Shown here in pieces: positions 4,417-57,615 of a stretch of 64,000 nucleotides of DNA. Position 1 is the first letter of the stretch. Every line of letters starts with the position of its first letter. Under the pieces are notes generated by a model. The model had not been told where the DNA came from, searched no databases, and saw nothing but the letters and a program-made list of their open reading frames with translations. Source of the DNA: Candidatus Saccharimonadales bacterium. GTDB taxonomy: Bacteria; Patescibacteriota; Saccharimonadia; Saccharimonadales; Saccharimonadaceae. Where the stretch lies: the NCBI GenBank assembly GCA_038244885.1, contig JBBRTA010000002.1, positions 6,436 to 70,435 of the forward strand, given 5' to 3'. Made by a program: the position numbers and the translations under genes.

Positions 4417-4509
4417 ATGTTCTCCTTAATGCGTTGTTGTTTGGACTATATTGCCTATTATAGCATTTCTAACAGATTAATGCTGGTCCGTGTTAAAATA
4501 GTACGAGTA

Positions 4510-8818: not shown

Positions 8819-9097
8819 ATGAAGAAAAAGATCAGCATCATCGGTATTATTGGCTCCCTGTTACTTATCCTTGATAGCATGGGCGCGAGCCATTGGGTAT
8901 TGTTATTTGTGCTGGCTGGGGTCATTCCAGGTACTGATGTCCGTATCTCAGCAATCGACATGATGGCTGCCAATGCCACTGCCATCGTAATTATTATTCT
9001 CCGCGTCACAGCGTGGCCTCAATTCCTTGAATTCTTCCTACCGCCCATCGAAAAACACGTGCCAACAAAAAAACACATCCGTCGCCACGCGGCCTAG
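8819..9097 (+). CDS. Small hypothetical membrane protein (92 aa)
   Basis: MKKKISIIGIIGSLLLILD..., 2-3 hydrophobic segments; no recognisable motif. Confidence 0.45.
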   Translation: MKKKISIIGIIGSLLLILDSMGASHWVLLFVLAGVIPGTDVRISAIDMMAANATAIVIIILRVTAWPQFLEFFLPPIEKHVPTKKHIRRHAA

Positions 9098-9106
9098 TTC
9101 TTGTTT

Positions 9107-10531
9107 CTAGTTTTCAAGGTCGGAAGGAAGGATACTTTCGGCCCACAGTTGCAGTTCCTGCAACACAAACTGCTTATCCTGGTCGTCGATTGTTGCCGAC
9201 AAACTATGAAGCGATTTCGTAAAACTCGGTAAACTGGCTGTAATTTTAGCGGCCCGCCACTTTTCCCAGGCTATCGTCTCGTCCTCAGCCAGACTACTAG
9301 GGAAATTACGAGCTTTGTAGTGGAGTAGTAGCGGTTCGAGCCGCTCATCATTAAAGCTAGGGTGAAAATCTGCTAGTTCACGTTCGCCGGCCTTGCGGAC
9401 AGTTTCGATTCTGATTTTATCAACGTCCGGTACGAAGCCATCGTACAGTTGCGCCTCGGGATCGAGTGATTTTTTGTATTCCGGCTTATTTTCGAACAAA
9501 GTTCTAATATTCTCAGCAAAACCAGGCGCAGCGAGTAAAGTAGTCCGGTGTTTCGTGATAATTTCTTCGCTCAAACCGATATTACTCCAGCCTTCACCTT
9601 GCGCCAGCACGCCAAGCGGTGCCACGGCCGGAGCGCGGTTGTACTGCAGTTCCTTGACTGGTAGGCGCTGAAAACCTTCAGCCGACCGCTCTTCCCACGT
9701 GGCATAAAGTTTTTTCTTCAGGTCCGACTGGCTCATCTCAAGAAATGGTGTCGGGTCGTAACGAAGATCGTAGACCACGACGTTGCTGTTCTGACCGGCA
9801 GTCAAGGGAAAAGCGACAGTTGCTTTGTTGAAGGCACTGTCCAAACGGCCACTAACGTAGACGAACGGCAGCTTATTGTCGAGATTAACCAATTGTTTGA
9901 CTTCTTTTTTGTCTCGGAGCCGCAGCAAATAGTCGTACAACTGAGGTTGTTTATCGCGGATTAATTTCGTCACGTCGATGAGCGCTTCGACGTCACTCAG
10001 CGCGTCGTGGGCTTTAGTATGATCAAGCTCGTTTACCTTGCTGAGAAGTTCTAGTCGGTTAGTGGCCACACCCTTGGCGTCGACGGGCCACTTGATCCCG
10101 TCGGGCCGGAGCGCCCGAGTCATACGAACAACGTCCAACAAGTCCCAGCGGGAGCGCCCGTCTTTCCAGCTCCATTCGTATGGATCGTAAAAATTACGCC
10201 AAAATAGATGACGGATAAACTCATCATCGAAACGAATATTGTTAAAACCGACCACAATCGTATCGGGGGTAAAAATTTCTTCGGACAACATCTTGGCAAA
10301 TTCAGATTCTTTATAGCCGTCCGCCTGTGTCTGTTGTGGCGTAATGTTAGTCACCATCAACGCTTCGGGGCTTGGTAGAACGTCGTCATTAAGCTTTACA
10401 AGGACATTGACAGGCTCTCCAATGGGCCGTAGCTCCATATCAGTCCGAATGCCGGCAAACTGCATGACGCGCGCTTCTTGCGGGCTGAGGCCGCTTGTCT
10501 CAAGGTCATAGAAAAAAAATGTTTTAGCCAT
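9107..10531 (-). CDS. sbcB: Exodeoxyribonuclease I
   Basis: 474 aa; N-terminal DEDDh exonuclease motif FFFYDLETSG, NNIRFDDEF, HDALSDV; size and layout of ExoI. Confidence 0.85.
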   Translation of the reverse strand: MAKTFFFYDLETSGLSPQEARVMQFAGIRTDMELRPIGEPVNVLVKLNDDVLPSPEALMVTNITPQQTQADGYKESEFAKMLSEEIFTPDTIVVGFNNIRFDDEFIRHLFWRNFYDPYEWSWKDGRSRWDLLDVVRMTRALRPDGIKWPVDAKGVATNRLELLSKVNELDHTKAHDALSDVEALIDVTKLIRDKQPQLYDYLLRLRDKKEVKQLVNLDNKLPFVYVSGRLDSAFNKATVAFPLTAGQNSNVVVYDLRYDPTPFLEMSQSDLKKKLYATWEERSAEGFQRLPVKELQYNRAPAVAPLGVLAQGEGWSNIGLSEEIITKHRTTLLAAPGFAENIRTLFENKPEYKKSLDPEAQLYDGFVPDVDKIRIETVRKAGERELADFHPSFNDERLEPLLLHYKARNFPSSLAEDETIAWEKWRAAKITASLPSFTKSLHSLSATIDDQDKQFVLQELQLWAESILPSDLEN

Positions 10532-10579
10532 TAGGACTAATTATATACTGCTTTGATGCCTGACAAAAATTTAGACATC

Positions 10580-11614
10580 TTATAAGCCATAGCGTCCCCG
10601 GAGGGCGTTGAAATTTAAATTAACCTCAGCAGTACTGAGTGCCCGGTTATAAACGCTGACATCACCCAGCTTACCCACAAGAGCATTACCGATATTAAAG
10701 GTACCTGGTAGTCCCAGCGGGGTAGATGTTAGATTTGGGCCTGTAGAGGAGACGTCCGTGCCATCGACGTAGATCTCCCTTTTTCCGCTCGAGTTTTGAA
10801 AGACAAAGCTGACAATATGCCACAAATCATCTTTTAGATTAAAATAACCGTAATCATAATAATCATCAGCTCCCCCATTTAGATATAGTAGTAGCCTATT
10901 TGTTCCTCCGTAGGCTAGGCTAACACCCTGATTGAAATTCATAATCTTCTGTATATTTGCGGGAGCAGTAGACACTAACTTCACGGCGGCACTTACCGTC
11001 CATTCTTGAGCAGCGGGAGTTTGGTTGAGAAAATTTGCCATCGATACATACTGTGTTCCGTCAAACGCCAAGGTGCCACCATTGGCCGTATCATATACGG
11101 TACTGTTAACAACAGTGCCATTGTTACCGTAGCCGCTAATGTCAGACCATTTCGTGCCCGTTCCTGGATAGGAGGTAGCCGAAGCCGCATCTAGATGCAA
11201 CATTAGACCAGACGATAAAAGACAACCACCAAGCGAAGGGGCGTCATCTTGAGTAATTTTAAATGTTTGATTACTTTTTATCGCAGAAATACAAAAAGTC
11301 TTATAGCCCAATGTACTATTCACTTGGTAGGAATAGGCAGTACCGGGACTCACCTTTAGACACTTATTGGTTGCGCTGTCTGGCTGGGCGCAGTCTATGG
11401 TGACCGGATAGCTATTGTTATCTATTTGGAATAACTTTAATTGCTGGTTAGCACCGTTGAGGTCAGATTGGAGCGACACGGCAATAGCCCGATTGTTAAC
11501 ACCCGTGTAGGCAACGATTGTGATAGCCGCCAAAATACCGATAATCACGATGACGATCAGGAGCTCAACGATAGTGAAACCCGAAAAAGAACGCCGATGA
11601 TTACCACTATTCAT
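10580..11614 (-). CDS. Type IV pilin-like protein with C-terminal LamG/concanavalin-A-like lectin domain
   Basis: Prepilin N-terminus SGFTIVELLIVIVIIGILAAITIVAY; C-terminal approx 200 aa match Laminin_G_3-type pattern (W.DISGYGNNGT, LAFDG, WHIVSFVF, IYVDG, GDVSVYNRALSTAEV). Confidence 0.75.
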   Translation of the reverse strand: MNSGNHRRSFSGFTIVELLIVIVIIGILAAITIVAYTGVNNRAIAVSLQSDLNGANQQLKLFQIDNNSYPVTIDCAQPDSATNKCLKVSPGTAYSYQVNSTLGYKTFCISAIKSNQTFKITQDDAPSLGGCLLSSGLMLHLDAASATSYPGTGTKWSDISGYGNNGTVVNSTVYDTANGGTLAFDGTQYVSMANFLNQTPAAQEWTVSAAVKLVSTAPANIQKIMNFNQGVSLAYGGTNRLLLYLNGGADDYYDYGYFNLKDDLWHIVSFVFQNSSGKREIYVDGTDVSSTGPNLTSTPLGLPGTFNIGNALVGKLGDVSVYNRALSTAEVNLNFNALRGRYGL

Positions 11615-11669
11615 TAGCTAAGTATACATGAGCACTATAGGGGGAACAAGAAAGAGCGTAGATGCTTAA

Positions 11670-12977
<1,308 letters not shown>

Positions 12978-12986
12978 CTAGTATAT

Positions 12987-13017
12987 CAAAATCGCCCCGT
13001 AATTAACAGGGGCGATT
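12987..13017 (-). terminator. Intrinsic terminator after the LysM-CHAP gene
   Basis: AATCGCCCC-N10-GGGGCGATT; on the minus strand the stem is followed by TTTTG. Confidence 0.7.
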
Positions 13018-13034
13018 CGATATATCCAGTGATC

Positions 13035-14180
13035 TTAGTGAATGTAATTGTAACTCGCTGCTTGGCCAGCGGTCATCGTACGGTAACTTTTAACGTTCCA
13101 GCCACCATAAGCGGAGTTGTTCATTTCGCTAATATGGATGTCTCCGTTAGGGTCAACGCTTTCGATAACAGCCACGTGTCCATACCCACCGCCATTTTGC
13201 ATGACAGCTCCAAATGAAGGTGTGTTGTCAACACGATAGCCTGCACCCCGAGCGGCGCTAGCCCAACTTGAGGCATTACCCCAGAAGCTCCCAACTGGCA
13301 TACCAAGCTGCATGCGTCTTTCGTAAACATACCACGTGCACTGTCCGTAGCCATAACGGTTTCCCGCCGAACCGCGATCGGTATTGAACCCCGCGTTATA
13401 TCCACTGACACCGCCACCGCCACCGTAGCCATAATTGACGACTCTCGGCGCGACGTAGCCTGGGCGTTCGGTTGCTGGCAGGCTGGCATTCGGTAGAATA
13501 ATTTTGGCGCCCGGTGTCAAACCAGTGACATCAAGGTCGTTGTAGAGGACAACCCGAGCCTGGTCCACATTGTACTTTTGAGAAATAGCTGGTAGTGTAT
13601 CACCTGCTTTAACGGTATATTGCACACCATCTTTCGGTAGAATCTGTAGTACCGTGTTTGGAATGAGAGCATCGGAGGTCAGGTTATTCGCCCATTTAAT
13701 CGTATCCTTAGATATACCAAACTGGGTCGAGAGGCTATCTATCGTATCACCCGCCTTGACGGTATAGGCAACGATCGTGCGGCTGTCCGCGGTCGGTTGA
13801 AGAATTTGTGGCTTGGTGGTGGTCACGCCATCTGTTTGCGCAAGTTCGCCTTTCGCTTCCAACGACACCGAAAGGTTTGCGACGTTTGCCGCAATCGATA
13901 AGTTCGTGGTTTCTGCAAGGTTAGCAGCAATATTGGTAGCGACAAGTTCATTCACAGAGGTACGTTGCGTTTGAGTATCAGATGTAAGGGCTGACGCATT
14001 CGCGATACCGCCGGACTGCTGAGGTGCATGATAACCAACTGCGACTACAGCAGCAATGAGGGCAAAAACGCTGACATAAATGGCAATTGTTGAGTGTTGA
14101 GGTATGCCTTTCGCTCTTTTGCGATTTTTAGCTTGTACCTGCTGTCTTGGTGCGACAGTTGATCGTTGAGCAAAGCTCAT
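13035..14180 (-). CDS. Secreted peptidoglycan hydrolase: 2 x LysM + C-terminal CHAP domain
   Basis: N-terminal TM anchor; LysM repeats YTVKAGDTIDSLSTQFGISKDTIKWANNL and YTVKAGDTLPAISQKYNVDQARVVLYNDL; CHAP Cys (GQCTWYVYERR) and His (GHVAVIES). Confidence 0.85.
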   Translation of the reverse strand: MSFAQRSTVAPRQQVQAKNRKRAKGIPQHSTIAIYVSVFALIAAVVAVGYHAPQQSGGIANASALTSDTQTQRTSVNELVATNIAANLAETTNLSIAANVANLSVSLEAKGELAQTDGVTTTKPQILQPTADSRTIVAYTVKAGDTIDSLSTQFGISKDTIKWANNLTSDALIPNTVLQILPKDGVQYTVKAGDTLPAISQKYNVDQARVVLYNDLDVTGLTPGAKIILPNASLPATERPGYVAPRVVNYGYGGGGGVSGYNAGFNTDRGSAGNRYGYGQCTWYVYERRMQLGMPVGSFWGNASSWASAARGAGYRVDNTPSFGAVMQNGGGYGHVAVIESVDPNGDIHISEMNNSAYGGWNVKSYRTMTAGQAASYNYIH

Positions 14181-21877: not shown

Positions 21878-22405
21878 CTAATTAACAGCCACGAAGTAGT
21901 TCATGCCGTACAAACTATCCAGAGTGGTATTACACGTGCCGTCGGTGTCGGTTGTCGAGTGTGGCATCGTTTCCAGATTAGCGTAGACGTACGCTGTTGC
22001 GCCGCAGTCGTATTTCATATAATAAAAACAATCCTGCGACGGATATGTCCCGGAACAACCTAGATTAGTCAACGGGTCGGCGAGCTCCTTTGAAAGATAC
22101 CCACCGTTGATTAAGCATTGGTTTACCGAAAGAAGCGGGCCGGCACCGTCGTAGTCATTCCAATACCAGCCGTTCCCAGTCGCGCAACCCCCTGAGCTAC
22201 TGACAAAATTACCTTTGTCAACACCGTAGAGCTGGAGGGCTTTTGCAATCTGTGCTACATCTTCTTTTCGCTGGGCGTCCCGCGCCTTCGCTTGGATCCC
22301 GCTATAGGCGACAATCGTAATTGCCGCCAGAATGCCGATAACGACGATAACGATAAGGAGTTCAACGATAGTGAAGCCTGTTTGTTTTGCCGACATTTTA
22401 TTCAT
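21878..22405 (-). CDS. Type IV pilin (prepilin-type N-terminal methylation domain)
   Basis: MNKMSAKQTGFTIVELLIVIVVIGILAAITIVAYSG; four Cys in the C-terminal globular part. Confidence 0.85.
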   Translation of the reverse strand: MNKMSAKQTGFTIVELLIVIVVIGILAAITIVAYSGIQAKARDAQRKEDVAQIAKALQLYGVDKGNFVSSSGGCATGNGWYWNDYDGAGPLLSVNQCLINGGYLSKELADPLTNLGCSGTYPSQDCFYYMKYDCGATAYVYANLETMPHSTTDTDGTCNTTLDSLYGMNYFVAVN

Positions 22406-35729: not shown

Positions 35730-37145
35730 CTATTCGAGCATACGAACTTTGATCGTGTCGGTGGTGCCGATGACGCCAGGCTGTTGCCCGCTGACGATGA
35801 TGACTGGCGTCGGTTCGTCGCCAAAAAAGCCTTGAGCTTTTAATTCTTTGGCAATGCTGAGGCCAGCTTCGGCTGAATCTGGTCGAACGTAGCTTCGGTT
35901 GGCATAGCTGAGGGCGAGCTGTTGGGCGGCGCGAGGTTCGCTGGTGACACTGATAATCGGCAGATTTGGACGGTGAGACGCAATGTTAGCGGCCGTCGCC
36001 CCAGATTTCGATTCGGCAATAATCGCCGGAGCTTTGAGCTGCTTCGCCAAGGAAACCGCCGCGGCGCTAATCGCATCGCGCTGCTTCTTGTGACTAGTGG
36101 CTCTCCCCTCAAGTGGATCAACCGGTGCATTGTCCTGCGTATATAAAATCACCTTCTTCATGGCGGCGACCGTCTCGAGCGGATAGCGCCCATTAGCCGT
36201 TTCATCGCTCAACATCACGGTATCGGCACCCTGAATCACGGCAATGGCAACGTCACTGACCTCCGCTCGGGTTGGTTCGGGGGCATCAACCATACTTGCC
36301 ATCATCTGAGTTGCCACGATACTGAGCTTACCGTGCATGCGGCAGAGGGCGATGATGCGGCGCTGCACGATAGGCACGACTTCGGCGCCGGCCTCAACCG
36401 CCAAATCGCCACGAGCTACCATGACGCCATCACTGACCTTGACAATTTCTTCGAGCATTTCGTCTTTAATGGCGGCTTTTGTCTCGATTTTACTAATAAT
36501 CTGGGCCTGCGAACCGCCGGCCGTCAGGATTTGACGGAGGTTGTTAATGTCTTCGGCGCTCTGGATGAAGCTCAGCGCCACGTAATCGATATCCTTCGTC
36601 AAGCCGTATTCGATATCGCGCAGGTCCTTCGGCGTCAAGATGTCCCCGCCGAAGTCGGTGTCAGGCAGATTGATACCCTTCCGACTCATCAAGGTACCGT
36701 CGTTTTCAACTCGGAGTTTGATGGCGCTTGCCGAAACCACCTCGATGATGGTGGTACGAACTTTACCGTCAAAAATGTAAAGTGGTTCGCCCGGCTTTAC
36801 CTTCTCGGCCAGATTGTACTGGACGGGAAATATCAGACCGTCGTGCTTGGCACCGTACTCGAGGACAATTTCATCGCCTTTTTTGACGTCGGTGTTCTCG
36901 TTGAGTAGTCCGAGGCGGATTTTTGGCCCCTGTAAGTCTTGTAAAATAGCCACAGGTTTGCCAACTTTTACGCTGGCCTCGCGGATCCACCTAATCTGGT
37001 CATCGCGCTCGGCGTAGTCGCCGTGGCTAAAGTTAAGTCGAAATCCGTTTACACCTGTACGGATAAGGTTCTCTATCATTGCTGGGTTACTGGTTGGTGG
37101 CCCTAGCGTGGCTAAAATTTTTGTGCGTTTGAAAATAATACTCAT
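35730..37145 (-). CDS. pyk: Pyruvate kinase
   Basis: RTKILATLGP, LNFSHG, MVARGDLAVE, ATQMM. Confidence 0.95.
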   Translation of the reverse strand: MSIIFKRTKILATLGPPTSNPAMIENLIRTGVNGFRLNFSHGDYAERDDQIRWIREASVKVGKPVAILQDLQGPKIRLGLLNENTDVKKGDEIVLEYGAKHDGLIFPVQYNLAEKVKPGEPLYIFDGKVRTTIIEVVSASAIKLRVENDGTLMSRKGINLPDTDFGGDILTPKDLRDIEYGLTKDIDYVALSFIQSAEDINNLRQILTAGGSQAQIISKIETKAAIKDEMLEEIVKVSDGVMVARGDLAVEAGAEVVPIVQRRIIALCRMHGKLSIVATQMMASMVDAPEPTRAEVSDVAIAVIQGADTVMLSDETANGRYPLETVAAMKKVILYTQDNAPVDPLEGRATSHKKQRDAISAAAVSLAKQLKAPAIIAESKSGATAANIASHRPNLPIISVTSEPRAAQQLALSYANRSYVRPDSAEAGLSIAKELKAQGFFGDEPTPVIIVSGQQPGVIGTTDTIKVRMLE

Positions 37146-37203
37146 ATCTATTTATTGTACCATTGTTTCGTCAGAGGTAGAGGAGGCTACTGCGCAAATC
37201 CAT

Positions 37204-37247
37204 CCAAAGAAAATATCCCATCACAGTGGATGGGATATTTTCTTTGG
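37204..37247 (-). terminator. 19-bp perfect inverted repeat directly after (and overlapping the CCA of) tRNA-Glu
   Basis: CCAAAGAAAATATCCCATC-acagtg-GATGGGATATTTTCTTTGG. Confidence 0.65.
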
Positions 37248-37319
37248 TGATCTCACCGGGAATTGAACCCGGATTGCCAGGATGAAAACCTGGTGTCCTA
37301 ACCGTTAGACGATGAGACC
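37245..37319 (-). tRNA. tRNA-Glu (anticodon TTC), CCA encoded
   Basis: Hand-folded cloverleaf: GGTCTCA/TGAGATC acceptor, anticodon arm CCAGG-TTTTCAT-CCTGG, T arm CCGGG-TTCAATT-CCCGG. Confidence 0.9.
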
Positions 37320-37436
37320 ATATTTTGTAAATGATGTAATGTACGCAGTCTTCTATCATCGACTCGGTTTTTTAACCTGGTCTCTGTACCTGAAGGGCGT
37401 TAGACGATGAGACCATATTTTTTGTGAACGATGCAA
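37303..37436. repeat. Tandem direct duplication (period 95 nt) of the tRNA-Glu 5' end plus its upstream flank
   Basis: 37303-37339 vs 37398-37436: 24 identical nt (cgttagacgatgagaccatatttt), a 2-nt indel, then 10 of 13 matches. Confidence 0.85.
37374..37414 (-). pseudogene. Degenerate tRNA-Glu 5' fragment
   Basis: First 17 nt of tRNA-Glu (GGTCTCATCGTCTAACG) repeated exactly, then an 8-nt ACCAGGTT match; no T arm or 3' acceptor strand. Confidence 0.7.
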
Positions 37437-37679
37437 CCGTGTCATTTAATCCTGATGATTGTAACAAAAAAAGCCTTCTTTGGATAGAGGTACCTATCGT
37501 TTGACAATAAAAAGACGCTCTACTTAAAATGCGCCTTACGTCGTAGTGCATCGAAATATCGAACCAAACCGCGATCCGCAACGTCTCAGGCGTCTGAGCA
37601 AGGTCCGCAACTCGTGCCAACCTCGTCTGAATAGTTAATGCAAATCATTGTTTTTTGTAGCGTATATCACCATACGACC

Positions 37680-37697
37680 AACGCTATATATAGCGTT
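37680..37697. repeat. Perfect 18-nt palindrome
   Basis: AACGCTATATATAGCGTT in non-coding DNA. Confidence 0.9.
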
Positions 37698-37742
37698 ATC
37701 GGGATATTCCGCTTGTGTTTTACGTGATTAGTGATATAAAGC

Positions 37743-37771
37743 ATTGACATTATGGTGATTTTATGATAAGT
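37743..37771 (+). promoter_or_regulatory. Orphan sigma-70-like promoter in non-coding DNA
   Basis: TTGACA - 17 nt - TAAGTT. Confidence 0.4.
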
Positions 37772-37873
37772 TTACAACATCGGTTATACGAGGCGTGAGG
37801 CCCCGTTATAGCGGAGGATCGTTAACAAGTCAGATTATTACAGTGCATGTCTGTGAAAGTCTTGACTCACGAA

Positions 37874-37918
37874 GGTAGCACCCTGGTGATATTCGTCGCC
37901 AGAGTGCTACCTTTGTTG
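37874..37918 (+). terminator. Intrinsic terminator with no upstream CDS
   Basis: GGTAGCAC-N22-GTGCTACC followed by TTTGTTG; inner CTGG/CCAG pairing. Confidence 0.55.
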
Positions 37919-37999
37919 CAGTCAGATAACGATTGAGCCGTTACACGCTCTCTCGTCATAAGACACGCTACAAATTTATAGCATATCGCATCTCCCCCA

Positions 38000-38051
38000 T
38001 TTCGGGTGACACTTTGGTGAAAAACCATTGTCGCTAAAGTGTCACCCGAAA
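38000..38051. repeat. Inverted repeat with 16-bp perfect arms, 20-nt spacer, about 45 nt upstream of the first island gene
   Basis: TTTCGGGTGACACTTT-N20-AAAGTGTCACCCGAAA. Confidence 0.9.
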
Positions 38052-38097
38052 GGGAATGACCGGCAATCCTGCCGTACTTCCCAGAAAGGGAGAAGAG

Positions 38098-38934
38098 ATG
38101 TCAGATAAACCCGAAAAAGCCTCGAAAGAGGAGATTGCGGTCATCGCAGCACTCGGCGATACCGGTCAAAAGGTGGTGGATTTCGTTCACAAGACGGTAT
38201 CCGACACGATGAAGGCCAACGCCGACGAGCTGCGTGCAGCAATCGGGCGGTTCAACGAGCACGTCGCATCATGCGAGGCAAGGGAGATCGGTTACAACGA
38301 TCTCCTGAACTCGATGAGCGACGCGCTCAACAAGGCCCGCGGTGCACACAGTTCCGTTGCAACGAGCGTCAATGACGGCAAGCAGGTCACGCCTGCCGCA
38401 GTCGCTGAGGCAGTCGAAGCAACAGAAAAGGTGCAGAGGCTCGAGGACTCGTGGAAGGTGATGGTCGACAAGACCCTCGAAGCCCACGACAAGACCCTCG
38501 ACGACCTCAAAGGTCGGGTTTCGACACTCGAAGGCAAGAACAAGGTTCCGACGATGGCACCCGTGCCAGCACCGGAACCGAACCCCAAGCCCAAGGCTGT
38601 CGAGCCAGAACCCAACGTCGTCACGGTCGAGCCAAACAAGCCCGACCAGACGAACGTCTTCGTGGCACCGTCACAGCCGACGGTCGTCCGCTACGTCAAC
38701 CCCAAACTTTGGGGCGGCCTGGCACGGGCGTTGGCAGCCGCCGGCTTCATCATCGGTGGCATCGTCGTCCTGAACATTTGGGGAGGTTTCTTCCCCGGTG
38801 TTCCCGCAGCCATTCAGTGGGTGCGATGGTTGACACTACTGTTGATACCTGTGTTCGGCCTGTTTACAGGCGGGGCACTTGGTTCATACATCGAGTCGAA
38901 GCAGCAACCCGTAAGGGAAACAGTCGTGGCGTAG
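38098..38934 (+). CDS. Hypothetical membrane protein of the GC-rich island (helical N-domain, PxP-rich linker, two C-terminal TM helices)
   Basis: GC3-rich ORF; ATG 38098 preceded by AAAGGGAGAAGAG; C-terminus LARALAAAGFIIGGIVVLNIW and WLTLLLIPVFGLFTGGALGSY. Confidence 0.6.
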   Translation: MSDKPEKASKEEIAVIAALGDTGQKVVDFVHKTVSDTMKANADELRAAIGRFNEHVASCEAREIGYNDLLNSMSDALNKARGAHSSVATSVNDGKQVTPAAVAEAVEATEKVQRLEDSWKVMVDKTLEAHDKTLDDLKGRVSTLEGKNKVPTMAPVPAPEPNPKPKAVEPEPNVVTVEPNKPDQTNVFVAPSQPTVVRYVNPKLWGGLARALAAAGFIIGGIVVLNIWGGFFPGVPAAIQWVRWLTLLLIPVFGLFTGGALGSYIESKQQPVRETVVA

Positions 38935-39056
38935 CCACAGGGCGTGTAGGAGCCTAGTTCTCCTCTTTGTCGTTCAGTCGACGCACGTCCACGAATCACA
39001 ACCGGGAAGGCCTCGGTGTGAGCATGCCCCCAAAGGGCAGAGAGGGGGTTCTTCTC

Positions 39057-40085
39057 ATGAAGAATCTTCGTCATTGGCTCTCCGGGGCCTTTATTTCTGG
39101 CGGCGCCATCGTCGTCGGGATCATGGTCCTGTTGTTGTCAACCATATTCACCACCATGGGTCAGCCGACCAATGTGTCCGCTACCGAGCCGACGCCGACT
39201 GCAACCGCAACGGCAACGGCCACACCGGTGGCCACCAAGCTGACGACATCCAAGTACATCATCGCGATGCCGGAACGAGGTAACGGCCGTCTGAATAAAG
39301 ATGGCGTTACCAATCGTGGTAACGTCGAAAAGTTCAGGACGCAGATCCTGAACCAGGCTAAAAGCGACCCTCTGACACTCTTCCTTTACTACCAAGCTTC
39401 ACCGCTTGGTACGACAAGGCCTCTTAGCAATGAGTCAATCATAGCTGAGGGCGGGAAGGTCATGAACGGAAACGTCTACTCCAAGGAAGGCATTCGTGCC
39501 TACAAGGAGTGGGCAGCCCTCTGGACATCGTCGGCCACGCAGATCTCTGCAGTTGACGAAATCACGTTCCAGGGGAACAACACTGGTGTGTCAGCCAAGA
39601 ACACCCCGACCACCAGTAAGAGCGTCACTGGTAAGGACAAATCGGGTTACGACATCCGATACACTGATGCGATGAGTAAGACGGTGAAAGAGCATTCCGC
39701 TCTGAACCGTTGTACTCAGCCCACCGGTAATAGGATACCGAACGTCCCGCCGGGACCGACGGACAACCCAGTCCCGACGCCGACACCTACACCGACGCCG
39801 ACGACGCCGACGTGCCCACCCGGGTACGTTGGTACACCGCCAAAGTGTCTCCAATCCAAGGTTCCTTCACAGGATCCCGCGCCAAGAGGCAACGCTCCCG
39901 TCGGGGGAGGTTTGAACCAGGACCCTGGTCCTGGAACGGTCCCCCCGGCGCGTCCAGCGCCGGTCGCACCACCCGTTGGGTCAACCCCCGACCCGGCACC
40001 AGCCCCTGCGCCAGAGCCTTTGGCCCCACCGCCGAGCGCTCCAGCAACGGGAACATCCTGCGCACCAGGAATACCTGTGTGCTGA
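39057..40085 (+). CDS. Hypothetical secreted/anchored Pro-Thr-rich protein of the GC-rich island
   Basis: ATG 39057 preceded by GAGAGGGGG (ATG 39024 or 38967 start also possible); N-terminal TM GAFISGGAIVVGIMVLLLSTIF, TEPTPTATATATATP linker, Pro-rich C-terminus ending CAPGIPVC. Confidence 0.6.
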   Translation: MKNLRHWLSGAFISGGAIVVGIMVLLLSTIFTTMGQPTNVSATEPTPTATATATATPVATKLTTSKYIIAMPERGNGRLNKDGVTNRGNVEKFRTQILNQAKSDPLTLFLYYQASPLGTTRPLSNESIIAEGGKVMNGNVYSKEGIRAYKEWAALWTSSATQISAVDEITFQGNNTGVSAKNTPTTSKSVTGKDKSGYDIRYTDAMSKTVKEHSALNRCTQPTGNRIPNVPPGPTDNPVPTPTPTPTPTTPTCPPGYVGTPPKCLQSKVPSQDPAPRGNAPVGGGLNQDPGPGTVPPARPAPVAPPVGSTPDPAPAPAPEPLAPPPSAPATGTSCAPGIPVC

Positions 40086-40094
40086 GTTGACAAC

Positions 40095-40131
40095 GAGTTG
40101 GGTGCGTGGCCTTCAGTCACGCACCCAACTC
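40095..40131 (+). terminator. GC-rich 14-bp hairpin right after the island ORF2 stop (no T-tract)
   Basis: GAGTTGGGTGCGTG-N9-CACGCACCCAACTC. Confidence 0.4.
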
Positions 40132-40360
40132 AGAAAGCTATATCGTTTAGCGCATCACCGAGGAATCTATTCCCTGCTTTAACGCCTCACGGCGACCGCA
40201 AGTCGAGTAGATTCCTCGTGAATCTTTTTTGATTCGACATGCACGTTGTAATAATCTGATTTGTTTCCTTTAACAAACAGGCAATAGCACCAATCAATAT
40301 TATTTATTTTTATTAATATTTGATTCTCTCTGCGAGACGAATCAATAGAAGGAGAATTAT

Positions 40361-41665
40361 ATGAGCAACTTAATTTCACTCATACGACGCGCCCCTAAGC
40401 GCACCAGTACATTACTCGCGATTGCAGCCGCAGTCGTCGTTGTTCCAGCCGCCCTATTTGCATGGGGACCGACTCGTCCAACCTACACAATCGAAACACC
40501 AGCCGATCACATTACGTTTAACTCAATCACCAACAACCCAAATATTGGTGACGAGCGTAATTTCGTTGGTATCCGCGAAACTGGCACAACCAACCTATGG
40601 TCCGACAACATGACCGTCGTAAAAGACAAGTCATACACGGTCCGTATGTACGTACACAACAACGCAGCCGCCAACCTCAACCTGGTGGCCGAGAATGTCA
40701 CCGCTAAGTTCAACCTGCCAACGACCACTGGGAAATCCCTCCAGGTCAACGGTTTCTTGGACTCAAGCAACGCAACGCCAACCGAAGTTTATGACCACGC
40801 AATTTTTACTAGCGCCGAGGATTTTAACCTGGCGTACGTAAGCGGCAGTCTAAAATTTGAGAATAACTTCTTTGGCGCAACCGGTACTGCTCTTCCCGAG
40901 AGTATCTTTACCAGCGCCGGAGCAAAACTTGGCTACGACAAGCTTGACGGCCGCATTCCTGGTTGTTTCCAGTATGCCGGCTACGTGAGCTTTACAGTCA
41001 AGCCACAATTTGCCCCAGTCTCACAGTTTACTATGAGCAAAATGGTCAGCAAACACGGTGATAACAAGTGGGTTGAAAGCTACGCCGCACAAGCTGGCGA
41101 AGTAGTTGACTACCTTATTCAGTACAAGAACGTCGGTGGAGCACAACAGAACGACGTCACTTTCCGTGACACACTTCCTACTGCTACGACCTACGTCAAC
41201 GGTTCAACAACCTTTGGTAACTCAACGACCCCTGCTGGAGTCAAAGCAAGCGACAACATCGCTAACGGAACTGGCATCAATGTCGGTTCATATGCTCCAG
41301 GCGCAAACGCATGGGCAATCTTTAGCGCCAAAGTTGCAGCCAACGATCAACTTCCAACCTGTGGTGCCAACACGCTTGTAAACAAAGCTAAGGTTACAAC
41401 TGGTGGTGGTTCAATCGAAGATACAGCAAACGTCACCGTTTCTAAAACGTGTAAGACAGCTGAATGTAAGCCTGGTATTCCAGTTGGTGACAAGCGATGT
41501 GAAGAAACTCCAGTAACACCCGTTACTCCAGTCACTCCCGTCACCCCAACCCAACTACCAAAAACGGGCGTCAGCGACAGTATCGCTCCCCTGCTTGGAC
41601 TTGGTTCACTGATTGCAAGTGTTGGTTATTACCTCACTAGCCGTCGTGCTGCCCTGCTCAAGTAA
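40361..41665 (+). CDS. LPXTG cell-wall-anchored surface protein with DUF11-type conserved repeat domain
   Basis: Signal peptide, DUF11/TIGR01451-like segment AQAGEVVDYLIQYKNVGGAQQNDVTFRDTLP, (TPV)x4 stalk 41507-41542, LPKTG 41555-41569 + hydrophobic stretch + RRAALLK; SD AAGGAG. Confidence 0.85.
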   Translation: MSNLISLIRRAPKRTSTLLAIAAAVVVVPAALFAWGPTRPTYTIETPADHITFNSITNNPNIGDERNFVGIRETGTTNLWSDNMTVVKDKSYTVRMYVHNNAAANLNLVAENVTAKFNLPTTTGKSLQVNGFLDSSNATPTEVYDHAIFTSAEDFNLAYVSGSLKFENNFFGATGTALPESIFTSAGAKLGYDKLDGRIPGCFQYAGYVSFTVKPQFAPVSQFTMSKMVSKHGDNKWVESYAAQAGEVVDYLIQYKNVGGAQQNDVTFRDTLPTATTYVNGSTTFGNSTTPAGVKASDNIANGTGINVGSYAPGANAWAIFSAKVAANDQLPTCGANTLVNKAKVTTGGGSIEDTANVTVSKTCKTAECKPGIPVGDKRCEETPVTPVTPVTPVTPTQLPKTGVSDSIAPLLGLGSLIASVGYYLTSRRAALLK

Positions 41666-53906: not shown

Positions 53907-54410
53907 ATGTATCGTCGAGGGTTTAGTATCGTTGAATTAATTATTGTCATCACTGTGATGGGAATATTGCTCGTATTAGGCGTGGTGAATATGCGCAGCA
54001 CACAGTCACGCGCCCGCGACGACGAACGCAAGACCGACATCGAAACGATTGCTCTGCAACTTGAGAATTACTTTAATACTGGCACGGACGGCTGGAATGC
54101 ATCGACCGGTTCCTATCCGACGACGGACTTAGTGTCTAGTGTTCAAACAACGCTACGCGACGCCGATATGAAATCCTTCACCGCGCCCGGGGCAGCTAGT
54201 CTGGCAGCGAGTTTTGTCACGGCAACGAACAATACACAGACGACAGCCGGCGTCACGCCGGCGCCAACGATTAGCACCTACGTCTACCAGCCATTACAGC
54301 CAGACGGGACGCTCTGTACCGGCGTGATGACCACCTGCCGTAAATTCAACCTCTACTATATGCTGGAAACCGACGGTTCCTCTAACATGGTAAAGAGTAA
54401 AAACCAATGA
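53907..54410 (+). CDS. Minor (pseudo)pilin with prepilin N-terminus
   Basis: MYRRGFSIVELIIVITVMGILLVLG. Confidence 0.75.
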   Translation: MYRRGFSIVELIIVITVMGILLVLGVVNMRSTQSRARDDERKTDIETIALQLENYFNTGTDGWNASTGSYPTTDLVSSVQTTLRDADMKSFTAPGAASLAASFVTATNNTQTTAGVTPAPTISTYVYQPLQPDGTLCTGVMTTCRKFNLYYMLETDGSSNMVKSKNQ

Positions 54411-54796
54411 CGTCTAAATCCACCCAAGCGGGCTTCTCAGCGGTTGAACTATTAATCACTTTGTTTGTAGCCGCCGCATTCTTGGTGGCCGGCTACCAGC
54501 TGTACAGTCTGATTATTAAGGATAGCGGGCAGACCCGATCGCAAGCCCGTGCCAGCAACGTGACCTACGATTACATGCGTCGTTATTCGGTAACTCCCTA
54601 CACTGCTAACCCTTGTGCCACGGCGAATCCGCTGACCGCTTCTCCCCTCACCGTGACCGGTCTCAGTGCCGTCACAATCTCAGTTGTCATCACCTGCCCT
54701 TATCCAGCCAGGACCAACGTTTCACGAATAGAGGTTACTACCCTCTATAACTCGCCGCAGCAAACGATAAAACAGGCGACCTATGTCAAATTTTAG
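54407..54796 (+). CDS. Minor (pseudo)pilin with prepilin N-terminus
   Basis: MTSKSTQAGFSAVELLITLFVAAAFLVAGY; ATGA overlap with the previous gene. Confidence 0.75.
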   Translation: MTSKSTQAGFSAVELLITLFVAAAFLVAGYQLYSLIIKDSGQTRSQARASNVTYDYMRRYSVTPYTANPCATANPLTASPLTVTGLSAVTISVVITCPYPARTNVSRIEVTTLYNSPQQTIKQATYVKF

Positions 54797-55622
54797 ATCA
54801 CCATCACAACCAGCCATTTCTGGTTTTACGATCGTCGAGATGTTAATTATTGCACCGATCGTCCTGCTGACCATCGGTGCCTTTATCACCGTTATCGTGA
54901 ATATCACTGGTGAAGTACTAGCTAGCCGTAACGCTAACGTACTCGCCTATAACGTCCAAGACACGCTCAACCGCATAGAAAATGATGTCAAGGCCAACGG
55001 AACATCGTTTGTGGAGGCCAACCGAATTACTCCTCTAACGTCACCCCAAGGGTATGATGATAACATAGCCGGATTCAGCAATGTCGGGGCCAGTGGCACT
55101 ATGCTCATCCTCAATACACCAATGACGACCGGCAATCCCGCTACGCTCTCCAGCAATGTCCTCTACTTCAACGCGCCCAATAGCTGTGCTAGCCTGAACT
55201 TCAACAAAAACGCAACAATGATGATGAACATCGTCTATTTTGTCAAAACTGACGCTATCACTAACATTGGTACATTATGGCGGCGAACGATTGTACCGTC
55301 TAACTATTTGACCGCCGGTACCTGTGGTACACCGTGGCAGCAGCCAAGCTGTCTGACGGGGAGCGGGACCCTCTGCACGACGCAAGATATTCGCCTACTT
55401 GATGGCATCGCCGTGAATGACTTTGTCTTGCAATATTTCACCCTTGCCAGCGACACAGTTCCTAACAGCATCGCTGGCGATATCGCCCAACCGGCTGCTA
55501 GCCGCGCCACAGCCCTGCAGTCAGCCACGACCGTTGGTGCGACACTTACCGCCTCCAAAACCGCCGCTGGACGCACCGTCAGCCAAACCGGTACGATGCG
55601 AGTCAGTCGAGTCACAAATTAA
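54783..55622 (+). CDS. Minor (pseudo)pilin, larger PilW-like type
   Basis: SGFTIVEMLIIAPIVLLTIGAF; 14-nt overlap with the previous gene. Confidence 0.7.
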   Translation: MSNFRSPSQPAISGFTIVEMLIIAPIVLLTIGAFITVIVNITGEVLASRNANVLAYNVQDTLNRIENDVKANGTSFVEANRITPLTSPQGYDDNIAGFSNVGASGTMLILNTPMTTGNPATLSSNVLYFNAPNSCASLNFNKNATMMMNIVYFVKTDAITNIGTLWRRTIVPSNYLTAGTCGTPWQQPSCLTGSGTLCTTQDIRLLDGIAVNDFVLQYFTLASDTVPNSIAGDIAQPAASRATALQSATTVGATLTASKTAAGRTVSQTGTMRVSRVTN

Positions 55623-55652
55623 AAAAGTTCTGTAAATCTTTACAAGAAGTGC

Positions 55653-55681
55653 TTGTGTTTAAAATTACGAACCAGTATCAT
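55653..55681 (+). promoter_or_regulatory. Promoter of pilin paralogue 1
   Basis: TTGTGT - 17 nt - TATCAT, 40 nt before the ATG; same box layout as paralogues 2 and 3. Confidence 0.5.
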
Positions 55682-55720
55682 GATTACATACACTAACTAC
55701 TACATAGGGGGCATTAGGAC

Positions 55721-56251
55721 ATGGTTCTTAACAAAATGAAAGACACTAATAAGACAGCCGGTTTCACGATCGTCGAACTGTTGATTGTTATCGTCGTTAT
55801 AGGTATCTTGGCAGCAATCACGATTGTGGCTTATAGCGGTATTACGGCCCGCGCCAACACGACAAAAGCCCAGACAAATGCCGTTCAGACTCAAAAGGTA
55901 GCCGAAACCTACAATGCAGAGTTAAGTGCGTACCCAAAAACAACTGCTAACTTTGGAGCCGCTCCAACAGCTAAATTGCCTTCTGGTGTTACTCTGTTTT
56001 ACACGGGTGGTACCGGTGTTAACGCAACACCAAGTGCAACCAACGGTGGTGGTACGGTTTGGTACCAGTGGTGCGGTTCTACCAACCTGATAGGAACCTC
56101 CGATGCACAAGGTGGCCGTATCCAATACTGGGACTTTTCTACCAATGCTCTCGCTGTCGCTCCAGCCATAATATATGTCGGGACTGGTTCCGCTACGCTT
56201 GGTGCGGGTGTGGGTACAGCCTGCAACACGTGGTTTACCCCTGCTTCATAA
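55721..56251 (+). CDS. Type IV major-pilin paralogue 1
   Basis: KTAGFTIVELLIVIVVIGILAAITIVAYSGITARANTTKAQTNA; SD GGGGG 9 nt upstream. Confidence 0.88.
   Translation: MVLNKMKDTNKTAGFTIVELLIVIVVIGILAAITIVAYSGITARANTTKAQTNAVQTQKVAETYNAELSAYPKTTANFGAAPTAKLPSGVTLFYTGGTGVNATPSATNGGGTVWYQWCGSTNLIGTSDAQGGRIQYWDFSTNALAVAPAIIYVGTGSATLGAGVGTACNTWFTPAS
55760..55861 (+). repeat. 102-nt near-identical block, copy 1 (pilin N-terminal coding region)
   Basis: ggtttcacgatcgtcgaactgttgattgttatcgtcgttataggtatcttggcagcaatcacgattgtggcttatagcggtattacggcccgcgccaacacg; 2 mismatches to copy 2. Confidence 0.9.
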
Positions 56252-56274
56252 CATTTCGTAAGCTAACATGTCAC

Positions 56275-56305
56275 AAAAGAAGCTTCATCAAACGAAGCTT
56301 CTTTT
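56275..56305 (+). terminator. Intrinsic terminator after pilin 1
   Basis: AAAAGAAGCTTC-atcaaac-GAAGCTTCTTTT. Confidence 0.8.
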
Positions 56306-56367
56306 GGAGTCGCTATCTAGTACCACCTTGCTCTTCTTGGAGTGACCAACGTCTGATTATAATTCGC

Positions 56368-56396
56368 TTGTGGTTATATGTGTCTTATGGTACATT
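56368..56396 (+). promoter_or_regulatory. Promoter of pilin paralogue 2
   Basis: TTGTGG - 17 nt - TACATT with TG one nt upstream of the -10. Confidence 0.5.
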
Positions 56397-56434
56397 TAAC
56401 GTATAAGTAATCAATTAACGGGGGGCAGGTACAA

Positions 56435-56899
56435 ATGTCAAATATGAAAACAAGCACTAACAGTCGAAGCGGTTTCACGATCGTCGAGCTGTTGATTGTT
56501 ATCGTCGTTATCGGTATCTTGGCAGCAATCACGATTGTGGCTTATAGCGGTATTACGGCCCGCGCCAACACGGTCAAGGCACAAACCAACGCCGAGAGTA
56601 TCCAAAAGGTCGCCGAAGCCTACAACGCCGATCCACCTACAGGCGCATCGGGCTATCCTGCTACACGAGGGGCACTAACCGGATACAATGGTTCAGCCAA
56701 AATCCCGTCAGGTATCACCTGGGGTACACCTGCGAATACGTCAACTGCGACTCAAGCATATAATGAGTATGTACCTGGAACTACCCCCGCTAACGGTGGT
56801 TGTATCTATTACTGGAACTACACCACTAGTGCTATCAACTACACCGGAGTGGGTGTTGCGGTAGTCAACGCGGCCGCTACTACTTGCACCAGCGCCTAG
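56435..56899 (+). CDS. Type IV major-pilin paralogue 2
   Basis: RSGFTIVELLIVIVVIGILAAITIVAYSGITARANTVKAQTNA; SD GGGGGG. Confidence 0.88.
   Translation: MSNMKTSTNSRSGFTIVELLIVIVVIGILAAITIVAYSGITARANTVKAQTNAESIQKVAEAYNADPPTGASGYPATRGALTGYNGSAKIPSGITWGTPANTSTATQAYNEYVPGTTPANGGCIYYWNYTTSAINYTGVGVAVVNAAATTCTSA
56471..56572 (+). repeat. 102-nt near-identical block, copy 2
   Basis: Differs from copy 3 at one position (c/t near the 3' end) by my reading. Confidence 0.9.
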
Positions 56900-56930
56900 A
56901 TAGCGTCAGCTCAATATTAAGCTACGGATT

Positions 56931-56962
56931 ACAAAGGTAGGCTCGTGAGAGCCTACCTTTGT
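56931..56962 (+). terminator. Hairpin after pilin 2
   Basis: ACAAAGGTAGGCTC-gtga-GAGCCTACCTTTGT (14-bp stem). Confidence 0.7.
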
Positions 56963-57020
56963 AAAGTAACGAGGTAAGGATGCCTGGTTTCGAGATAGAC
57001 ACATAGTTGATTCATATCGC

Positions 57021-57049
57021 TTGTGGTTACAGCCTCACTGTGTTATATT
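57021..57049 (+). promoter_or_regulatory. Promoter of pilin paralogue 3
   Basis: TTGTGG - 17 nt - TATATT with TG one nt upstream of the -10. Confidence 0.5.
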
Positions 57050-57090
57050 TAACCTATAATTTCATCATTCGTTAGGGGGCAACTGAAAAA

Positions 57091-57615
57091 ATGGCACATC
57101 TAAAAACAAATTCTCAATCACAGAGCGGTTTCACGATCGTCGAGCTGTTGATTGTTATCGTCGTTATCGGTATCTTGGCAGCAATCACGATTGTGGCTTA
57201 TAGCGGTATTACGGCCCGCGCTAACACGACAAGCGGTCAACAGGCGGCGGATAACATCGCCCGCAAAGCAGAGTTATACTACGCCGAGCCTACCACTTCA
57301 AGCTACCCTGCAACCTTCGCCGCGCTATCCGGGGCTGCCGCAACTACCAGTTACTACGTCCCGGCCAGTGCTGGAACACTCGTGACAACAGCGATAGCTG
57401 CCGCACCAGCCAAACCCTCGTATATCAACTTCTACACCTGTGGTACAAGTGGCGCGGTTGCCGCACCTACCTCCATTGGACTCATCACTGCCGTCACCGG
57501 TAATAAGATTGGTACGTGGGACTATACCAATAATGTCGTTGTCTTTGACACGGCGGGCGTCACCAGTGGTCTTGTTGGGACGTTTAACGTCGCCTGCTTT
57601 ATCAGCACGACTTAG
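57091..57615 (+). CDS. Type IV major-pilin paralogue 3
   Basis: QSGFTIVELLIVIVVIGILAAITIVAYSGITARANTTSGQQAA; SD GGGGG. Confidence 0.88.
   Translation: MAHLKTNSQSQSGFTIVELLIVIVVIGILAAITIVAYSGITARANTTSGQQAADNIARKAELYYAEPTTSSYPATFAALSGAAATTSYYVPASAGTLVTTAIAAAPAKPSYINFYTCGTSGAVAAPTSIGLITAVTGNKIGTWDYTNNVVVFDTAGVTSGLVGTFNVACFISTT
57127..57228 (+). repeat. 102-nt near-identical block, copy 3
   Basis: See copies 1 and 2. Confidence 0.9.

Follow-up and report, generated by a model that had tools for sequence, protein, structure and literature searches.

What is the GC-rich, two-gene segment that lies near a tRNA-Glu gene in a Saccharibacteria genome, and how did it come by a composition so different from that of its surroundings? 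We address this for a stretch of 64,000 nucleotides (nt) from a Candidatus Saccharimonadales bacterium (contig JBBRTA010000002.1 of assembly GCA_038244885.1, positions 6,436 to 70,435), referred to here as the window, in whose coordinates all positions are given. The segment contains two open reading frames (ORFs), ORF1 and ORF2, and a preliminary description had taken it for a recent acquisition from an actinobacterial host. We propose instead, with moderate confidence, that 38098-40085 is the exchangeable payload of a conserved Saccharibacteria expression cassette, the untranslated regions (UTRs) of which pair as RNA around genes for envelope proteins.

A repeat search identifies a 19-nt inverted pair at 37824-37842 and 40247-40265, which extends with one small bulge to 31 nt. 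This 31-nt inverted repeat (37821-37851 and 40236-40274) went unnoticed in the preliminary description and is the real bracket of the segment. We refer to its two halves as the A-arm and the B-arm, and the elements of the putative cassette are as follows.

37680-37697, no strand assigned: perfect 18-nt palindrome AACGCTATATATAGCGTT, read from the sequence, within a block conserved in a nine-locus alignment.
37744-37772, plus strand: predicted sigma-70-type cassette promoter, with TTGACA (37744-37749), a 17-nt spacer and TAAGTT, preceded by TGA.
37813-37818, plus strand: GGAGGA in the 5' UTR, similar to a Shine-Dalgarno (SD) sequence, directly before the A-arm and with no start codon at SD distance.
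37821-37851, plus strand: A-arm, composed of GTTAA, the 17-nt core CAAGTCAGATTATTACA and the 9-nt distal part GTGCATGTC.
37853-38097, plus strand: structured 5' leader, which contains hairpins (37869-37916 and 37997-38054) and has the SD sequence GGGAG (38088-38092) at its end.
38098-38934, plus strand: ORF1, 278 amino acids (aa), G+C 0.59, G+C at third codon positions (GC3) 0.70.
39057-40085, plus strand: ORF2, 342 aa, G+C 0.59, GC3 0.64.
40086-40235, plus strand: conserved 3' UTR, in which hairpins lie at 40095-40131 and 40159-40218 alongside a small one, GAATC-T6-GATTC.
40236-40274, plus strand: B-arm, composed of the distal part GACATGCAC, a 2-nt bulge, the core TGTAATAATCTGATTTG, 6 nt and TTAAC, complementary to the A-arm.
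40361-41665, plus strand: CLIPPER/DUF11 protein with an LPXTG-type anchor (Pfam PF01345, E = 2e-6; weak Gram_pos_anchor match), the conserved gene 3' of the B-arm.

There are only two copies of the arm in the window, but the pair recurs widely in this group. A scan of 185,579 species genomes with the 17-nt core gives many matches in Saccharibacteria/Saccharimonadales together with single chance matches elsewhere, as expected, and a metagenome scan with the 23-nt A-arm returns at least 120 contigs; from public genomes and metagenomes we collected 77 different cassettes with the same arm pair. Across these the A-arm has the form GTTAA-CAAGTCAGATYATTACA-GTGCATGTC, and its complementary B-arm is located 0.45-3.3 kb downstream. 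Their organization is uniform: an unbiased core pattern recovers 22 arm pairs, all of them with one A-outer/A-inner, B-outer/B-inner arrangement and with the genes running from A to B, and none of the 77 cassettes is in inverted orientation. A CLIPPER-like gene follows within 600 nt of the B-arm in 49 of the 61 cassettes with enough sequence. Those lacking it are short, derive from low-GC lineages and reside at other loci, sometimes in tandem. Among the related loci retrieved from public genomes and metagenomes (numbered L001, L002 and so on), L064 has three cassettes beside pyk (5278-7314), L167 has three between rpsI and trpS (~10340-13470), and L032 has one between sodA and clpP (4449-5160). 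These are promoter-arm-gene-arm units with one small orphan gene each and no GC excess, and neighbours in the arrays of L064 and L167 share no arms, each cassette having two of its own.

The arms co-vary. Counted over the 17-bp core and the 9-bp distal part, the cells of 74 distinct arm pairs comprise 1740 Watson-Crick pairs, 78 G.U pairs and 34 mismatches, such that 98 % are paired, and compensatory double changes are present at eight or more helix positions. At core position 11, C-G is replaced by T-A in 21 cassettes, and the distal pair GTGCATGTC/GACATGCAC is exchanged by double changes for GTGTATGTC/GACATACAC, GTACATGTC/GACATGTAC or GTGCACGAC/GTCGTGCAC. The number of paired cells is 1682 for true partners and 1655 ± 2.1 (maximum 1664) when partners are shuffled 2000 times. 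On the A side nothing separates the two helices, and the bulge, which varies from 0 to 11 nt, is always on the B side; a nucleic-acid helix accommodates this easily, whereas a single protein bound to both arms as double-stranded DNA would do so awkwardly. For the window, the predicted duplex energy is -45.5 kcal/mol (-17.5 ± 3.7 for shuffles), and the minimum-energy fold of the 2.5-kb putative transcript pairs the A-arm with 40236-40265. The arms most likely pair in the mRNA, and we favour RNA on account of their predicted transcription, the one-sided bulge, the absence of a linked recombinase and the lack of any inverted form among the 77 cassettes. Other roles for the arms were considered. 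The B-arm contains TGTAATAAT, which resembles an extended -10 element, and the arms could be outward promoters or an operator pair; we reject this as their main role because the B-arm of L032 faces the convergent clpP, and the arrays place B-arms against the next A-arm. A DNA uptake sequence is likewise rejected, there being just two copies in 64 kb.

The shell in which the arms are embedded is also conserved. TTGACA and the -10 region are kept in eight of the nine aligned loci, and 67 of 74 cassettes have the pattern TTGAC[ATC]-N16-18-TAnnnT at a distance of 47-66 nt upstream of the arm core, with no instances in shuffled controls; this spacing predicts an A-arm at about +40 to +50 of the transcript. 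An SD-like motif within 22 nt of the core is present in 52 of the 74, and in the window the GGAGGA at this position may act as a 5' mRNA stabilizer of the STAB-SD type, by analogy with such elements. The palindrome AACGCTATATATAGCGTT, approximately 50 nt upstream of the promoter, is a candidate operator for some regulator; relatives carry TTGACA-N5-TGTCAA still further upstream of its position. The RNA fold of the leader has a predicted energy of -118 kcal/mol (z = -11.5 relative to shuffles), and sister loci have hairpins at equivalent places with sequences that are compensatory or wholly different. In a seven-locus alignment, conservation of the 3' UTR up to the B-arm far exceeds that of the coding region. 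The two hairpins that had been read as bracketing the segment (37997-38054 and 40095-40131) do exist, although they are local UTR structures and not its borders. No intrinsic terminator is called on the plus strand at 40086-40450, and one occurs between the last stop codon and the B-arm in only two of 67 cassettes; in L064 a B-arm is immediately followed by a canonical terminator, and a stretch of 19 nt with no promoter separates two of the cassettes. Because terminators before the B-arm are rare and L064 is laid out in this way, both arms should share one RNA. An Rfam search of 36500-41000 (E <= 1) gave only the tRNA and chance miRNA-like matches.

Inside this shell the genes turn over. The 139 ORFs located within arms fall into 73 families, and 112 are on the plus strand in the A to B direction; the 27 on the minus strand are mostly short. 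The usual first payload gene encodes an ORF1-like coiled-coil protein ending in two transmembrane (TM) helices, of which there are at least five unrelated families. The second codes for a protein of 320-650 aa with an N-terminal anchor or lipoprotein-like signal and a variable central domain, often with a shared proline-rich tail, PRGNAPxGGGxNxDPGPG. ORF1 and ORF2 conform to this. The AlphaFold model of ORF1 (mean pLDDT, the predicted local distance difference test score, 61) has a helical hairpin (residues 21-147), a disordered proline-rich linker and two C-terminal TM helices, and that of ORF2 (mean pLDDT 58) has a TM anchor, a TP-rich linker, a small alpha/beta domain (approximately residues 61-232) and a disordered proline-rich tail with the motif PRGNAPVGGGxNxDPGPG. 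These architectures match those given in the preliminary description, which was also right that the ORFs encode membrane-anchored or secreted proteins of the envelope. In Foldseek searches against the PDB, ORF1 matches nothing beyond generic helical hairpins, and ORF2 has no match. Among ten payload proteins of other cassettes a Pfam scan gives one match, Phage_lysozyme2, which suggests that some payloads act on cell walls; this peptidoglycan hydrolase payload (PF18013, E = 7e-20) is found in the L225 and L029 cassettes.

Genomes in which PK or CLIPPER is 80-88 % identical to that of the window carry non-homologous payload families between the same arms, and L125, with a CLIPPER 82 % identical, has families f30 and f1 in place of f6 and f0. 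ORF2 is itself a mosaic, with a central domain (39237-39752, residues 61-232) that is 50-61 % identical to proteins of distant lineages, and N- and C-terminal parts matching close relatives that carry a different central domain. Because families differ between close relatives and ORF2 is mosaic, the payload is replaced or recombined much faster than its frame, and to this extent the earlier suspicion of horizontal transfer seems to be borne out, as replacement of content.

The position of the segment is occupied in every related locus retrieved, and comparison of the pyk/tRNA-Glu/LPXTG junction in sister genomes yields no empty site. Three loci (L001, L002 and L005) keep the order UvrD-hyp-TIM-PGK-PK-(variable)-ORF1h-ORF2h-CLIPPER-73aa-HisK, in which ORF1h and ORF2h are the homologues of ORF1 and ORF2; L008 and L009 have the same flanks and an ORF2 homologue, with an ORF1 homologue undetected, and in the rearranged L006 the ORF2 homologue is still directly before the CLIPPER gene. 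The arms flank the cassette in all six of these sister loci. Identity to the window is 78-92 % for flanking housekeeping proteins, 55-69 % for ORF1 and 31-44 % for ORF2. Among 5.8 billion proteins ORF1 has 12 relatives and ORF2 has 33, the sole name given being 'Candidatus Saccharibacteria bacterium', and the homologues H7X68_01500 and H7X68_01495 are adjacent to each other. An exhaustive HMMER search with the globular domain of ORF2 finds 54 clusters among 1.84 billion representatives, and none of ten distant clusters checked has an informative taxon label. Neither search contains a homologue with an actinobacterial name, only Saccharibacteria-named or unlabelled metagenome proteins, and phage, plasmid and IMG/VR collections give no match to the segment; the proposed actinobacterial donor is not supported. 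Twenty-seven viral-contig matches to the 17-mer are single chance matches without an extended arm. Literature searches found no earlier description of the locus, nor of GC-rich islands in Saccharibacteria.

The compositional shift that first drew attention to the segment is real and modest. The G+C content is 0.579 at 38001-39000 and 0.586 at 39001-40000, and 0.408-0.548 in the remaining 62 1-kb windows, so that the segment has 58-59 % G+C compared with approximately 49 %. An independent Logan assembly is 100 % identical over 37292-39934, spanning the left composition boundary. The GC3 values of ORF1 and ORF2 are the top two among 57 long ORFs (mean 0.528, standard deviation 0.061), and by distance in relative synonymous codon usage (RSCU) they are the two largest outliers (1.62 and 1.51, with the next gene at 1.24), in agreement with the jump originally reported. 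GC1 and GC2, the corresponding values for first and second codon positions, are likewise elevated, not GC3 alone. The main codon signal is a preference for NNC over NNT in two-fold codons (0.86 and 0.71 in ORF1 and ORF2 but no more than 0.66 in native genes), with a third-position T frequency of 0.11 in ORF1. The two genes prefer AAG, CAG and GAG, show enrichment of GCA, TCA, CGT and AGG, and avoid CGC. The label 'actinobacterial-style' does not suit this usage: GC3 reaches merely 0.64-0.70, and raised GCA, CGT and AGG with lowered CGC are unlike high-GC Actinomycetota. Pilins and the CLIPPER gene are among the native genes nearest in codon pattern. The window encodes at least seven type IV pilin-like paralogues (10580-11614, 21878-22405, 53907-57615) with near-identical N-termini GFTIVELLIVIVVIGILAAITIVAYSG.

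The SD sites attributed to both genes are present (GGGAG at 38088-38092 and GAGGGGG at 39042-39048), and the claim that many native genes look leaderless holds because an SD-like motif is found in just 16 of 54 genes and TATAAT-like boxes lie just before starts. In many genes of the window such a box is 6-10 nt 5' of the start codon, consistent with leaderless transcripts, and the SD-led genes are ORF1, ORF2, CLIPPER and the pilins.

The GC excess is limited to the payload and is common to non-homologous families. The spacer between ORF1 and ORF2 has a G+C content of 0.598, and the UTRs are at native G+C. Of 66 cassettes measured, 53 have the excess, and in these the G+C is 0.474 in the flanks, 0.475 in the 5' UTR, 0.596 in the coding sequence (GC3 0.676) and 0.497 in the 3' UTR, with spacers between payload genes at 0.588 (n = 12). 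Homologues of ORF1 have GC3 values of 0.75-0.82 compared with 0.37-0.51 in flanking genes, and the ORF2 family ranges from 0.34 to 0.80 across lineages. Relatives carry homologues in the same syntenic position with the same or a stronger GC excess, an outcome that the preliminary description had itself named as one that would refute it, and recency of acquisition is not supported. Several simple causes can be argued against. Pure codon selection fits poorly because spacers are GC-rich and GC1 and GC2 are raised; an un-ameliorated ancient import does so because the excess persists across saturated synonymous divergence; and a simple donor does so because no genome has the payload at native composition. 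We infer that the excess most likely reflects a distinct evolutionary regime of often-exchanged genes and not transfer from Actinomycetota, and the most likely candidates for its cause are GC-biased conversion at a recombination hot spot or a GC-richer Saccharibacteria pool not yet sampled.

The tRNA gene that had suggested an insertion site has two features of interest.

37245-37319, minus strand: tRNA-Glu(UUC), called by ARAGORN (Rfam tRNA, 63 bits).
37372-37421, minus strand: decayed tandem copy of the 5' half of tRNA-Glu, from the repeat search.

The tRNA-Glu is 778 nt before ORF1, and the account of some 780 nt of non-coding DNA next to it is correct as to the tRNA and the distance, but the stretch holds the conserved promoter, the palindrome and the structured leader. 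The tRNA is in the same position in L001, L002, L005, L008 and L009, and is downstream of the CLIPPER gene in the rearranged L006, where the linkage of the ORF2 homologue to CLIPPER persists. A 24-nt exact direct repeat of the tRNA 5' end (37303-37326 and 37398-37421, 95 nt apart), the only repeat pair derived from the tRNA, lies to the left of the segment. We rejected it as an att site, since the half-copy is common to the window and L005, and the duplication must be old because a further-decayed version is present in L005. From these arrangements the tRNA-Glu reads as a neighbour of the locus and not as its integration site, and the idea of a tRNA-linked insertion is not supported. There is no integrase or mobility gene between pyk and the histidine kinase gene in the window or in the six sister loci, and the observation that no integrase or att repeat is visible stands.

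The region between pyk and the cassette is variable in the relatives. L001 (8143-8881) and L005 (7954-8724) have a Y1_Tnp gene (IS200-like, possibly associated with repetitive extragenic palindromes) between pyk and tRNA-Glu, which is flanked by its own TTGCAAGGCCnGGCCTTGCAA palindromes, is at native G+C and is outside the island; neither the gene nor the palindrome has a copy in the window. A conserved A-run and hairpin at 37466-37490 reads as a minus-strand terminator. Its equivalent in L001 and L005 follows a GC-rich minus-strand gene of 111-115 aa, and this gene is missing in the window, where the hairpin is mismatched. L002 has four extra GC-rich small genes at 6962-9410 (115, 93, 181 and 99 aa; GC3 0.68-0.77), located to either side of tRNA-Glu and outside the arms, none of which is a homologue of the 111-115 aa gene found in L001 and L005. 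Neither Pfam nor PHROG gives a match above threshold for the additional GC-rich genes of the sister loci.

From these observations we propose the following scheme. The sigma-70-type promoter at 37744-37772 would start a transcript with a 5' UTR bearing the A-arm and the structured leader, and this would go on through ORF1, ORF2 and the conserved 3' UTR to take in the B-arm and probably, in the case of this window, the LPXTG/CLIPPER gene. Pairing of the arms in the RNA would then give a helix of 17 + 9 bp, lengthened to about 31 bp by the GTTAA extension, closing the 2.4-kb message into a loop. The duplex could be a processing and/or stabilizing element, similar to an RNase III-type rRNA stem or a 5'-3' UTR clamp, and could set the ends of the payload mRNA, parting it from the downstream CLIPPER message. 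The payload itself would supply two envelope proteins, one a coiled-coil protein that has two TM helices and the other extracellular and TM-anchored, with a variable domain and a proline-rich tail, and would be replaced between lineages via recombination inside the conserved shell. A broader proposal is more speculative, and we put it forward tentatively as possible but doubtful: that this is an undescribed cassette system in which a fixed shell of promoter, arms and UTRs clamps the mRNA ends, unrelated envelope genes are swapped in without a dedicated integrase, singly before an LPXTG gene or in tandem elsewhere, and the exchange holds payload G+C high.

Several points weigh against the payload interpretation or qualify it. 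Strand-specific evidence for RNA is weak: G.U and A.C cells number 78 and 21 overall, but 20 and 21, and so are equally frequent, once core position 4 (G.T in 58 of 74) is set aside. Complementarity alone therefore cannot separate RNA pairing from concerted evolution of two DNA sites. The start of transcription, read-through to the B-arm and cleavage are all predictions. An RNase III (rnc) signature was found neither in the window nor in 2 Mb of relatives' loci, a negative that is uninformative, and a literature search found no paper linking RNase III to Saccharibacteria. ORF1 and ORF2 have no Pfam or PHROG match above threshold to indicate a function. As to composition, short cassettes of low-GC lineages lack the GC excess, GC-rich small genes are also found outside the arms in L002, L001 and L005, and no donor pool is visible because the payload is richer than its flanks in every mid-GC genome.

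Four other explanations deserve to be weighed. The one offered at the outset, a recent acquisition from the actinobacterial host, its phage or a plasmid, inserted beside tRNA-Glu, we consider very improbable. The G+C and codon usage are indeed the strongest outliers of the window, a tRNA gene is near, and the genes are SD-led amid many leaderless ones, but there is no actinobacterial, phage or plasmid homologue, many Saccharibacteria have the genes in syntenic position with like composition, and the codon preferences point away from high-GC Actinomycetota; moreover, the tRNA is elsewhere in L006 while ORF2h stays with CLIPPER, there is no integrase or att site, and the tRNA repeat is an old pseudo-copy. 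It is unlikely, although less so, that the arms are DNA sites for a recombinase encoded elsewhere, acting as an inverton or in cassette exchange, with the payload circulating as a mobile cassette. Inverted repeats of about 30 bp flanking segments of 0.45-3.3 kb, tandem arrays, cassettes at differing loci (L064, L167 and L032), replacement of payload between close relatives and mismatches without strand asymmetry all speak for such a system. The locus is, however, linked to no recombinase, and the Y1_Tnp gene present in L001 and L005 is at native G+C with palindromes of its own. No inversion is seen and the arm arrangement is uniform in the 22 unbiased pairs, a conserved promoter outside the arm travels along with it, and it is only on the B side that the sub-site spacing varies (by 0-11 nt), which suits a helix bulge better than a protein footprint. 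We also find no dif-like internal dyad in the arms (the best match, 6/11, is at chance level), and no target-site duplication or direct repeat outside them.

A purely vertical locus, with the GC excess as a by-product of very high expression and the arms as ordinary regulatory sites, seems quite unlikely to us. In this case translational or mRNA-level selection would favour C/G-ending codons in abundant SD-led envelope proteins, and the near-consensus promoter, the strong SD sites, the marked preference for NNC over NNT, the closeness of pilin and CLIPPER codon patterns and the native G+C of the UTRs are all in keeping with it. Against this, the spacers are as GC-rich as the payload genes, GC1 and GC2 are raised too, a single ORF2 family spans GC3 values of 0.34-0.80, and non-homologous payloads in close relatives are at odds with simple vertical descent; the gene at 3727-4416, which we take to be L25-like and the one ribosomal-protein gene recognized in the window, has a GC3 of just 0.51. 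Improbable as well is a GC-rich mobile element gained once in an ancestor, its arms being relic terminal inverted repeats and its composition not ameliorated. The resemblance of the arms to terminal repeats, the wide distribution of the GC excess and the additional GC-rich small genes nearby in L002, L001 and L005 would fit, but flanking genes, at 80-90 % amino-acid identity and GC3 of 0.40-0.53, have diverged enough that synonymous re-equilibration should have taken place and yet payload GC3 is 0.64-0.82; strong purifying and compensatory selection acts on the arms, the excess extends to non-homologous payloads, and there is neither a transposase nor a target duplication. An exchangeable payload within a conserved, RNA-pairing expression cassette is the interpretation that we prefer.

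Three systems come closest in how they work: icaR, the stems of rRNA operons and the Correia elements. In the icaR mRNA of Staphylococcus aureus, the 3' UTR pairs with the 5' UTR and the duplex is an RNase III substrate that controls the fate of the message (PMC3868564). Pairing of 5' and 3' UTRs in a bacterial mRNA is the shared element, here as a prediction from sequence. In icaR the 3' UTR masks the SD sequence of one gene in one genus (PMC3868564), whereas the helix here is approximately 250 nt upstream of the SD sequence, encloses one to three genes (0.45-3.3 kb), and is conserved across many Saccharibacteria around unrelated payloads, with tandem copies possible. Correia repeat-enclosed elements (CREE) of Neisseria have transcribed 26-nt inverted repeats that bind RNase III, are cut or protected, and affect the expression of neighbouring genes; they are non-coding MITEs (transposable elements of the miniature inverted-repeat type) of 100-155 bp in hundreds of copies (PMC2649163). 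The arms described here differ in enclosing whole genes, in occurring about once per genome (two arm copies in 64 kb) and in having the promoter outside the repeat. In rRNA operons, stems flanking the 16S and 23S genes are long-range helices of 20-30 bp that RNase III cuts to release the enclosed RNA. The cassette resembles them in its long-range helix around a kilobase-sized RNA, but theirs enclose stable RNA, and the helix here would enclose an mRNA that in the window is followed by another gene, CLIPPER.

Other parallels are with mobile DNA. The pdif (XerC/D) modules of Acinetobacter plasmids are bounded by inverted sites of about 28 bp, with an 11-6-11 internal dyad, that are shared by adjacent modules. 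They are similar in being modules bounded by inverted sites, with arrays and exchangeable content, and differ in that the arms here have no internal dyad and are chromosomal, with each cassette having its own two arms and promoter. Integron cassettes, which depend on IntI, attI and compact attC sites, are mostly promoterless and form arrays of diverse small genes. Arrays of exchangeable small gene units, imperfect palindromes at junctions and diverse content mostly without assigned function are common to both, but the Saccharibacteria cassettes lack attI and have no IntI integrase in their flanks, their junctions are unlike a compact attC, their genes are flanked by the repeats, and nearly every cassette carries its own promoter. 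Genomic islands at tRNA genes share the compositionally deviant DNA beside a tRNA gene, but here there are no integrase or att repeats, and the segment is at the same site in all relatives examined and stays with CLIPPER. Unlike an inverton, the cassette is found in a single orientation in 77 instances with no invertase gene nearby, and unlike a MITE or a transposon with terminal inverted repeats it has no target duplication and only two arm copies in 64 kb, and the conserved unit reaches past the arm to the promoter.

The hosts to which Saccharibacteria, as obligate epibionts, can attach are decided by their surface proteins, and how these proteins diversify is poorly understood. The locus described here is a dedicated, conserved site at which turnover of envelope-protein genes is rapid and the regulatory frame around them is invariant. 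It also calls for caution, in that GC-rich DNA by a tRNA gene in an epibiont is here no evidence of capture from the high-GC host. To our knowledge, pairing between 5' and 3' UTRs has so far been documented only for single genes in model bacteria; if the arms do act as RNA, they would provide a phylum-wide example of such pairing around whole messages, and TTAACAARTCAGATYATTACAGT would serve as a simple sequence tag for the variable surface genes of uncultured Saccharibacteria.

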